A stretch of 64,000 nt of DNA from Alphaproteobacteria bacterium (GTDB lineage Bacteria; Pseudomonadota; Alphaproteobacteria; UBA8366; JADFVY01), in contig JBFHDX010000001.1 of the NCBI GenBank assembly GCA_041584475.1, positions 820 through 64,819 on the forward strand, written 5' to 3'. A program made the translations under genes and the position numbers. Shown in pieces: positions 56,755 through 56,771 of this stretch (position 1 is its first letter; the number at the start of each line of letters is the position of its first letter). A model generated the notes under the pieces. It did no database searches. It worked only from the letters and a program-made list of their open reading frames with translations, and was not told where the DNA came from.

Positions 56755-56771
56755 AGCAACTTCCGTGCCAA
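56755..56771 (-). promoter_or_regulatory. sigma54 (-24/-12) promoter, perfect consensus, upstream of the DUF4402 major-subunit gene
   Basis: The minus strand reads TTGGCACGGAAGTTGCT, which is YTGGCACG-N4-TTGCW with no mismatch. It lies about 100 nt upstream of ATG 56647 in an AT-rich intergenic region. Confidence 0.6.

Follow-up and report, generated by a model that had tools for sequence, protein, structure and literature searches.

What switches on a pilus locus that has three candidate promoters of the sigma-54 type and no activator gene beside them? The question is raised by a 64,000-nucleotide stretch of an alphaproteobacterial contig (JBFHDX010000001.1, positions 820 to 64,819; hereafter the window), which holds a locus of DUF4402 subunit genes, a chaperone gene and an usher gene. 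A preliminary description of this DNA had placed one sigma-54 promoter before each of three transcription units and had taken them as one co-regulated set needing an activator encoded elsewhere. Here, we report that the three elements are very likely genuine sigma-54 (RpoN) -24/-12 promoters, which would place a divergent chaperone-usher pilus under enhancer-dependent control. That proposal was upheld by the statistics and above all by comparative genomics, because homologous loci keep GG-N10-GC, the TGGC and TTGC cores and the same distance to the gene while the flanking sequence diverges.

Three -24/-12 elements and their rarity

The elements, designated B, A and U, are the following.

56755-56771, minus strand: promoter B, sigma-54-type -24/-12 element TTGGCACGGAAGTTGCT upstream of geneB, the putative major pilin gene (GG at 56769-56768, GC at 56757-56756)
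57504-57520, minus strand: promoter A, sigma-54-type -24/-12 element TTGGCATCGCATTTGCA upstream of geneA, the first subunit gene (GG at 57518-57517, GC at 57506-57505)
51480-51496, plus strand: promoter U, weak sigma-54-type element CTGGTCTGTAACTTGCT upstream of the usher gene (GG at 51482-51483, GC at 51494-51495)

The elements were compared with the sigma-54 consensus mrNrYTGGCACG-N4-TTGCWNNw (Barrios et al. 1999, as quoted in PMC2725144). Site B, read on the minus strand from 56771 to 56755, is an exact YTGGCACG-N4-TTGCW, as had been described. The sequence given for site A (minus strand, 57519-57504, TGGCATCGCATTTGCA) is likewise present, but the single mismatch ascribed to it holds only against TGGCAC-N5-TTGCW; relative to TGGCACG, there are two departures (T for C at -21 and C for G at -20). 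Site U (plus strand, 51481-51496, TGGTCTGTAACTTGCT) reads as stated, with three departures that all fall in the -24 half (TGGTCT, versus TGGCAC in the consensus). All three sites have GG at -25/-24 and GC at -13/-12 with exactly 10 nt between them, and all are intergenic and in sense orientation. With the usual distance of 12 nt past the GC, transcription would start near 57493 (A), 56744 (B) and 51507 (U), some 34, 97 and 68 nt before the ATG codons of geneA, geneB and the usher gene (conserved, at 51575), respectively; these distances are the inferred leader lengths. A scan of 51200-57800 gave no sigma-70-like promoter on the relevant strands, the only one found being on the plus strand before a divergent ABC transporter gene. 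Judged by their sequence, the elements have every property expected of sigma-54 promoters.

Rarity was assessed with a sigma-54 matrix, for which first-order Markov simulation of the window served as the null. Sites B (19.7 bits) and A (19.2 bits) were the top two hits in the window (128 kb of strand), and the next best scored 12.9 bits; the simulation led us to expect, per window, 0.11 hits of at least 17 bits and about 1.6 hits of at least 13 bits. Site U, at 12.9 bits, ranked third in the window, or eighth with a uniform background. The pattern TGGCAC-N5-TTGCW, allowing up to one mismatch on both strands, occurred three times (1.05 expected), and sites A and B made up two of the three. From the simulated rate, we put at the order of 1e-7 the probability that two such hits would each fall on the correct strand and no more than 300 nt upstream of a gene, the two genes being adjacent paralogues.

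The scan was extended to 33 related loci (labeled L plus a number) fetched via the pilin and usher proteins. The nonredundant window and locus sequence (231,557 nt) held 21 hits of at least 15 bits, all of them upstream of genes and in sense orientation; 19 stood before genes of these loci and the remaining 2 before glnK-amtB.

L025, 11142-11158: strong sigma-54-type element CTGGCACGGCTCTTGCT, directly upstream of glnK (P-II) and amtB
L026, 11112-11128: strong sigma-54-type element GTGGCACGACTCTTGCT, directly upstream of glnK (P-II) and amtB

As a classical sigma-54 target, glnK-amtB provided an unplanned positive control for the matrix. Matches of the grade of A and B, which the preliminary description had allowed might prove common elsewhere, were rare and confined to these loci and glnK-amtB.

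Conservation in related loci and the case for sigma-54

The syntenic loci comprise three subunit genes, a chaperone gene and a convergent usher gene, often followed by patatin and AMP-binding genes, with pilin identity to the window falling from 88% to about 40%. Orthologues of promoter B were found in L005, L006, L007, L008, L009, L010, L013, L020 and L021, 105 to 125 nt before the major pilin gene and with scores of 17 to 22 bits. For promoter A, the element ends 45 nt before the start codon in L020, L010 and L008, as it does in the window; in L021, a canonical element stands some 70 nt upstream of the start as called. The GC of promoter A is GT in L008. It is lost from L006, L007, L009 and L013, in which the -24 TTGGC (TTGTC in L013) and conserved blocks upstream stay; either the promoter is decaying in these four loci, or the upstream blocks serve another function.

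In all eight loci that cover the usher upstream region, promoter U has GG-N10-GC at one and the same position, with CTTGC invariant. Five of the seven relatives score 15 to 17.5 bits, and the site in the window is the most degenerate member of this class. Sequence upstream of the element could not be aligned even with L005 (an 82% relative). The positional orthologues are given below.

L020: TTGGCCTGTTTCTTGCA
L021: TTGGCTCAGTTCTTGCG
L019: TTGGCACATTTCTTGCG
L015: TTGGCCCAGTTCTTGCT
L005: CTGGCCCATTTCTTGCG
L006: CCGGCACATTTCTTGCG
L033: TTGGCCCATTTCTTGCA

A fourth promoter class lies at a second, adjacent paralogous subunit locus, as a 19-bit element before the first gene (L006 at 11848, L019 at 5253). 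This second locus (L006 11848-12467, L019 5253-5874, L012 103-1247) is divergent from the usher gene, and its second gene has no sigma-54 element before it. Within each class, the distance to the start codon is conserved. An information profile was built from 24 aligned sites of the four classes, which are not alignable with each other. GG (-25/-24) and TTG (-15 to -13) occurred in 24/24 sites, C-12 in 23/24, C-23 in 22/24 and T-26 in 21/24; information was confined to T-GG-C-A and TTGC, with most flanking columns below 0.5 bit and none above 0.9. The profile reproduces the published sigma-54 consensus. No sigma-54 element was found before the DUF4402 genes of the co-directional loci L023, L029, L031 and L032 or of the two-gene loci L025 and L026, so sigma-54 control appears to go with the split architecture.

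A search for genes of an activator or of the sigma factor itself combined six-frame motif searches, comparison of about 40 open reading frames with Pfam, tblastn with approximate NtrC and RpoN queries and the 6- to 10-kb flanks of the relatives. The window yielded no Sigma54_activat domain, GAFTGA motif, Walker-A signature or RpoN homologue; by motif, Pfam and tblastn searches alike, the enhancer-binding protein is not encoded in the window, as had been predicted. Upstream activator sequences were sought among listed inverted repeats and by inspection of 22 upstream regions, and here the outcome was divided: candidates were seen at promoter A (a repeat at -119 to -104, conserved) and at promoter B (an inverted repeat at -100, not conserved), and a motif shared by the promoters was not.

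The only signaling module in the window consists of two HisKA/HATPase_c histidine kinase genes (27532-31575, minus strand) with a 216-residue open reading frame between them. It was rejected as the cognate enhancer-binding protein, having no sigma-54 activator domain. In L020 (714-2149) and L021 (5824-7203), genes assigned by Pfam to an extracytoplasmic function sigma factor and an adjacent putative anti-sigma factor lie a few kilobases upstream of the pilus locus. L009 has a pair of open reading frames in a similar position (1236-2759), and no equivalent was noticed beside the window locus.

Several points weigh against assigning the elements to sigma-54. The matrix is our own approximation of the published consensus. 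Site U, with its three -24 departures, does not stand above chance when taken alone and is credible only because its position is conserved. No gene for an enhancer-binding protein or rpoN was found in any fetched relative locus, including 10 kb on each side in one complete genome, and no upstream activator motif common to the three promoters emerged from the listed repeats or the inspected regions. Finally, the loss of the -12 GC from promoter A in one related clade implies that, even with this site gone, geneA can either be expressed or be dispensed with. On the other side, the apparent purifying selection on GG and GC would be hard to explain if the genome had no rpoN. The source is a Rhodospirillales-like, uncultured alphaproteobacterium, its ParC having its best named relatives in Kiloniellaceae and Rhodospirillaceae (about 70% identity), and Rhodospirillales generally carry rpoN.

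From the conserved position and spacing of the elements and the nature of the genes behind them, we infer dependence on sigma-54 and an activator of the enhancer-binding type. Promoter A would drive the first DUF4402 subunit gene; promoter B, with the exact consensus, would drive the genes for the major pilin, the third subunit and the chaperone; and promoter U, the weakest, would drive the convergent usher gene. As is known of its action, the sigma-54 holoenzyme would sit on all three promoters as a silent closed complex until an ATP-hydrolyzing enhancer-binding protein, encoded elsewhere, remodeled the closed complexes into open ones, with IHF-type DNA bending probably assisting at promoter B. 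Subunits, chaperone and usher would then appear together, and only under the signal of the activator. Promoter strength would track need, the major pilin gene carrying the exact consensus and the usher gene the weak site. On this evidence, the pilus is very probably made only when the activator switches it on.

Regulated genes, transcription units and competing readings

The genes of the locus are as follows.

56860-57459, minus strand: geneA, 199 residues, DUF4402, first subunit gene, with a long N-terminal extension (Pfam PF14352, E = 3e-28; gene also called in identical contigs)
56153-56647, minus strand: geneB, 164 residues, DUF4402, putative major pilin (Pfam PF14352, E = 8.5e-27)
55530-56111, minus strand: geneC, 193 residues, third and weaker DUF4402-like subunit, nearly contiguous with geneB (Pfam PF14352, E = 1.4e-5)
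54536-55432, minus strand: chaperone gene, 298 residues, putative PapD-like periplasmic chaperone (weak precomputed PapD_N match; faint match to StiB, a fimbrial chaperone)
51575-54481, plus strand: usher gene, 968 residues, predicted outer-membrane usher with a C-terminal SdrD_B/CarboxypepD_reg-like domain (Pfam matches at the C terminus only)

The usher gene is convergent with the minus-strand subunit and chaperone genes, and its start rests on the gene call and a conserved N terminus; the position of the chaperone gene is kept in all orthologous loci. At the sequence level, no locus protein matched the Pfam usher or pilin families, and a search of pilin, chaperone and usher against PDB chains gave no relatives with a solved structure. 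The AlphaFold model of the usher (predicted local distance difference test [pLDDT], 82.7) was matched by Foldseek to FimD/PapC ushers (E = 1e-25 to 1e-21, about 930 aligned columns), with E = 1e-25 to 1e-23 and probability 1.00 for 3rfz, 9fw9 and 7lhg. For the geneB model (pLDDT, 86), the top PDB matches were all chaperone-usher pilins (CsuA/B, Caf1 and CfaB) and were weak (E = 0.04 to 0.1); over all chaperone-usher pilins matched, E was 0.04 to 0.8 and the TM-score about 0.4. Structure prediction thus supports the "usher-like" and "subunit" labels of the preliminary description, and, going by these models, the locus is a genuine chaperone-usher pilus system, though a highly diverged one. A literature search found no mention of DUF4402 or PF14352.

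Around the promoters, the following further features were recorded.

56790-56802, plus strand: exact match AATCAATAAATTG to the IHF consensus WATCAANNNNTTR, in a 78% A+T tract, centered near -52 of promoter B
56648-56744, minus strand: conserved 5' leader of geneB; contains a GGAGA Shine-Dalgarno sequence and two hairpins, one of which immediately follows the inferred start
56835-56853, minus strand: GC-rich 7-bp hairpin CGGCGCC-N5-GGCGCCG after geneA (arms 56835-56841 and 56847-56853), centered near -100 of promoter B
57597-57612, minus strand: CtrA-box-like direct repeat TTAAGCGAATTTTTAC (TTAA-N7-TTTAC), beginning 92 nt before the promoter A element (about -119 to -104); candidate activator site
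51529-51550, plus strand: imperfect, A+T-rich 22-bp palindrome TTTTGCTTAATATTTTGTAAAA in the usher leader, downstream of promoter U

The exact IHF match recurs at the same position in L008, and all promoters of class B have a TGAT(T/A)T core in a tract of 62 to 80% A+T. In an alignment of 10 loci, the geneB leader forms 15 pairs with 91% of cells paired and compensatory change in 2 pairs, a modest covariation that 20 of 500 shuffles equaled; an Rfam search of the leaders gave no match at E up to 1. This stretch could be an mRNA-stabilizing or regulatory leader.

The preliminary description had also taken the hairpin after geneA as a separator of independent transcription units. The hairpin exists (centroid, -15.1 kcal/mol; z = -2.0) and argues little for such units, being neither conserved nor followed by a proper U-tract. 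It was rejected as a conserved terminator or enhancer, since it is absent from L005 (an 88% relative), L010 and L020, and the terminator scan did not call it. In the clade of L006 to L013, moreover, no more than about 45 nt separate the end of geneA from the -24 element of promoter B. With a hairpin that is uncalled, unconserved and without an adjacent U-tract, and with geneA ending so near promoter B in these relatives, independent units are unproven. The same observations favor a single operon of subunit and chaperone genes transcribed from promoter A, in which promoter B may act internally to boost the major pilin and the hairpin would be no terminator. We consider this arrangement a serious possibility, if not quite our expectation; a 7-bp stem made wholly of G+C is stable in the window and could attenuate read-through, and promoter B is strong in loci whose promoter A no longer has the -12 GC, so that B can act alone. 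A single operon would refine the reading of three sigma-54 promoters and would not contradict it.

Between geneC and the chaperone gene lies a conserved A+T-rich block (GTTCGCAATTTATCAACCAATT, 55488-55517, minus strand), which in this genome contains the exact IHF consensus TATCAACCAATTG and, here only, forms an 11-bp hairpin (relatives keep the sequence and not the hairpin). Processing or attenuation at this block may set the ratio of subunit to chaperone. A sigma-54-like match within the block (55497-55513, plus strand, 10.6 bits) is antisense and was read as coincidental.

The repeat upstream of promoter A raises the question of a second input. The published CtrA box is TTAA-N7-TTAAC (PMC7200025, PMC3692519). 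With at most one mismatch, this motif occurs at two places in the window (0.35 expected), one of which is 57597-57612, and a CtrA-like repeat is kept 90 to 101 nt upstream of the promoter A element in eight of nine A-class regions, including those without the -12 GC. The repeat would serve the activator as its enhancer or else be a control site in its own right. Rarity, conservation and likeness to the published box would fit a second control region or promoter of geneA on this repeat, tying the pilus to CtrA besides or instead of an enhancer-binding protein. We think this unlikely, though worth keeping in view: every copy is one mismatch off the box, no sigma-70-like -35/-10 pair follows the repeat, a position of -119 to -104 is equally typical of an enhancer, and the repeat was not found upstream of promoters B or U. 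The other such site in the window is an exact CtrA box (TTAAAAAAGTGTTAAC, 6522-6537, plus strand) at the start of an rpoZ-spoT region (rpoZ by TIGR00690, SpoT/RelA by Pfam).

Less probable still is that only promoters A and B work in this genome, site U being a decayed remnant and the usher gene being transcribed from another signal, perhaps tied to the palindrome at 51529-51550. The low score of site U, within what chance would supply, its fall in rank with a uniform background and its TGGTCT half speak for decay. So does the palindrome, operator-like in appearance and better conserved than the promoter U element: 20 of its 22 bases, the last 20 (TTGCTTAATATTTTGTAAAA), are identical in L005, and it is recognizable in L006, L015, L019, L020, L021 and L033. 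Against this stand GG-N10-GC and the invariant CTTGC, held at the same position in eight loci where upstream sequence is unalignable, the high scores of several orthologues and the absence of a sigma-70-like promoter there. TGGT is, besides, found in proven sigma-54 promoters, such as that of Klebsiella nifH.

That the matches are accidental or belong to an unrelated protein, with the genes using ordinary sigma-70 promoters, is very improbable: the loose pattern TGG-N9-TGCW is common, with 27 occurrences in the window, but a chance origin was rejected by shuffles, by simulation (two hits of at least 19 bits, against 0.11 expected at 17 or more) and by the lack of off-target hits of at least 15 bits besides glnK in 232 kb, and 24 conserved sites with a sigma-54 profile and no sigma-70-like promoter on the relevant strands count against it as well.

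Apart from the pilus locus, the window contains a glycine-rich, repetitive open reading frame of 318 residues (62899-63855, minus strand) with repeats of the type GGGAGDGSGGGG, beside branched-chain amino acid transporter genes and without a family match. A similar Gly/Asn-rich open reading frame is present in L008.

Comparison with known systems

The elements resemble known sigma-54 -24/-12 promoters in having GG and GC one helical turn apart, TGGCA and TTGC cores, an intergenic position in sense orientation and no -35/-10 pair, and in the A+T-rich IHF-type tract upstream of the strongest site, B. They differ in that one of the three sites is weak and that neither an adjacent gene for an enhancer-binding protein nor a recognizable shared enhancer was found. 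Genes for enhancer-binding proteins often adjoin their targets (PMC2725144); here, there is no such neighbor.

The closest functional analogy would be the control of type IV pilin genes by sigma-54, IHF and an enhancer-binding protein or two-component system, as described for pilA with PilS-PilR in Geobacter (PMC2725144), pilE with Npa and IHF in commensal Neisseria (PMC6528607) and RpoN2-PilRX in Xanthomonas oryzae (PMC7170775). Common to both would be a major subunit gene with a strong sigma-54 promoter and an IHF-type site, so that an activator gates the making of the fiber. Assembly of type IV pili depends on an inner-membrane machine, and their activator gene is usually found beside pilA, whereas the locus described here encodes a chaperone-usher fiber, with three promoters that also cover chaperone and usher and no activator nearby.

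Among chaperone-usher pili (the archaic Csu pilus of Acinetobacter, type 1 and P pili), the likeness lies in the predicted usher fold, which matches FimD/PapC, in the weak CsuA/B, Caf1 and CfaB pilin matches and in the putative PapD-like chaperone; the inverted usher gene and the absence of sequence-level Pfam or PDB matches set the locus apart. To our knowledge, descriptions of the well-studied chaperone-usher operons give them sigma-70 promoters together with local regulators or invertible switches, and do not involve sigma-54. A literature search found no other case of sigma-54 control of a whole chaperone-usher locus, which does not prove that none exists.

DUF4402 members would thereby be pilins of a chaperone-usher machine whose usher escapes every sequence family. 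Expression could be approached either by finding and activating the enhancer-binding protein or by swapping the three promoters; more speculatively, sigma-54 control may be the reason such fibers would be silent in ordinary culture and have escaped notice. We tentatively suggest a wider reading, in which the DUF4402 system is an unrecognized, sequence-divergent branch of chaperone-usher pili, rewired in one Rhodospirillales-like clade into a dedicated sigma-54 regulon for a lifestyle-switch or cell-cycle-gated pilus. The three promoters, the IHF-type bend, the structured pilin leader, the operator-like usher palindrome and the CtrA-type box would all be parts of that regulon, and sigma-54 dependence would have arisen with the split of an ancestral operon.

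The distant DUF4402 operons (L023 of Oxalobacteraceae, L029, L031 and L032) share the DUF4402 subunits, the chaperone and a long usher with an SdrD_B/CarboxypepD_reg tail. Theirs, unlike those of the window, are all co-directional in one operon and without a sigma-54 element. Set against them, the split loci with sigma-54-type elements offer a case of promoter gain alongside operon rearrangement.

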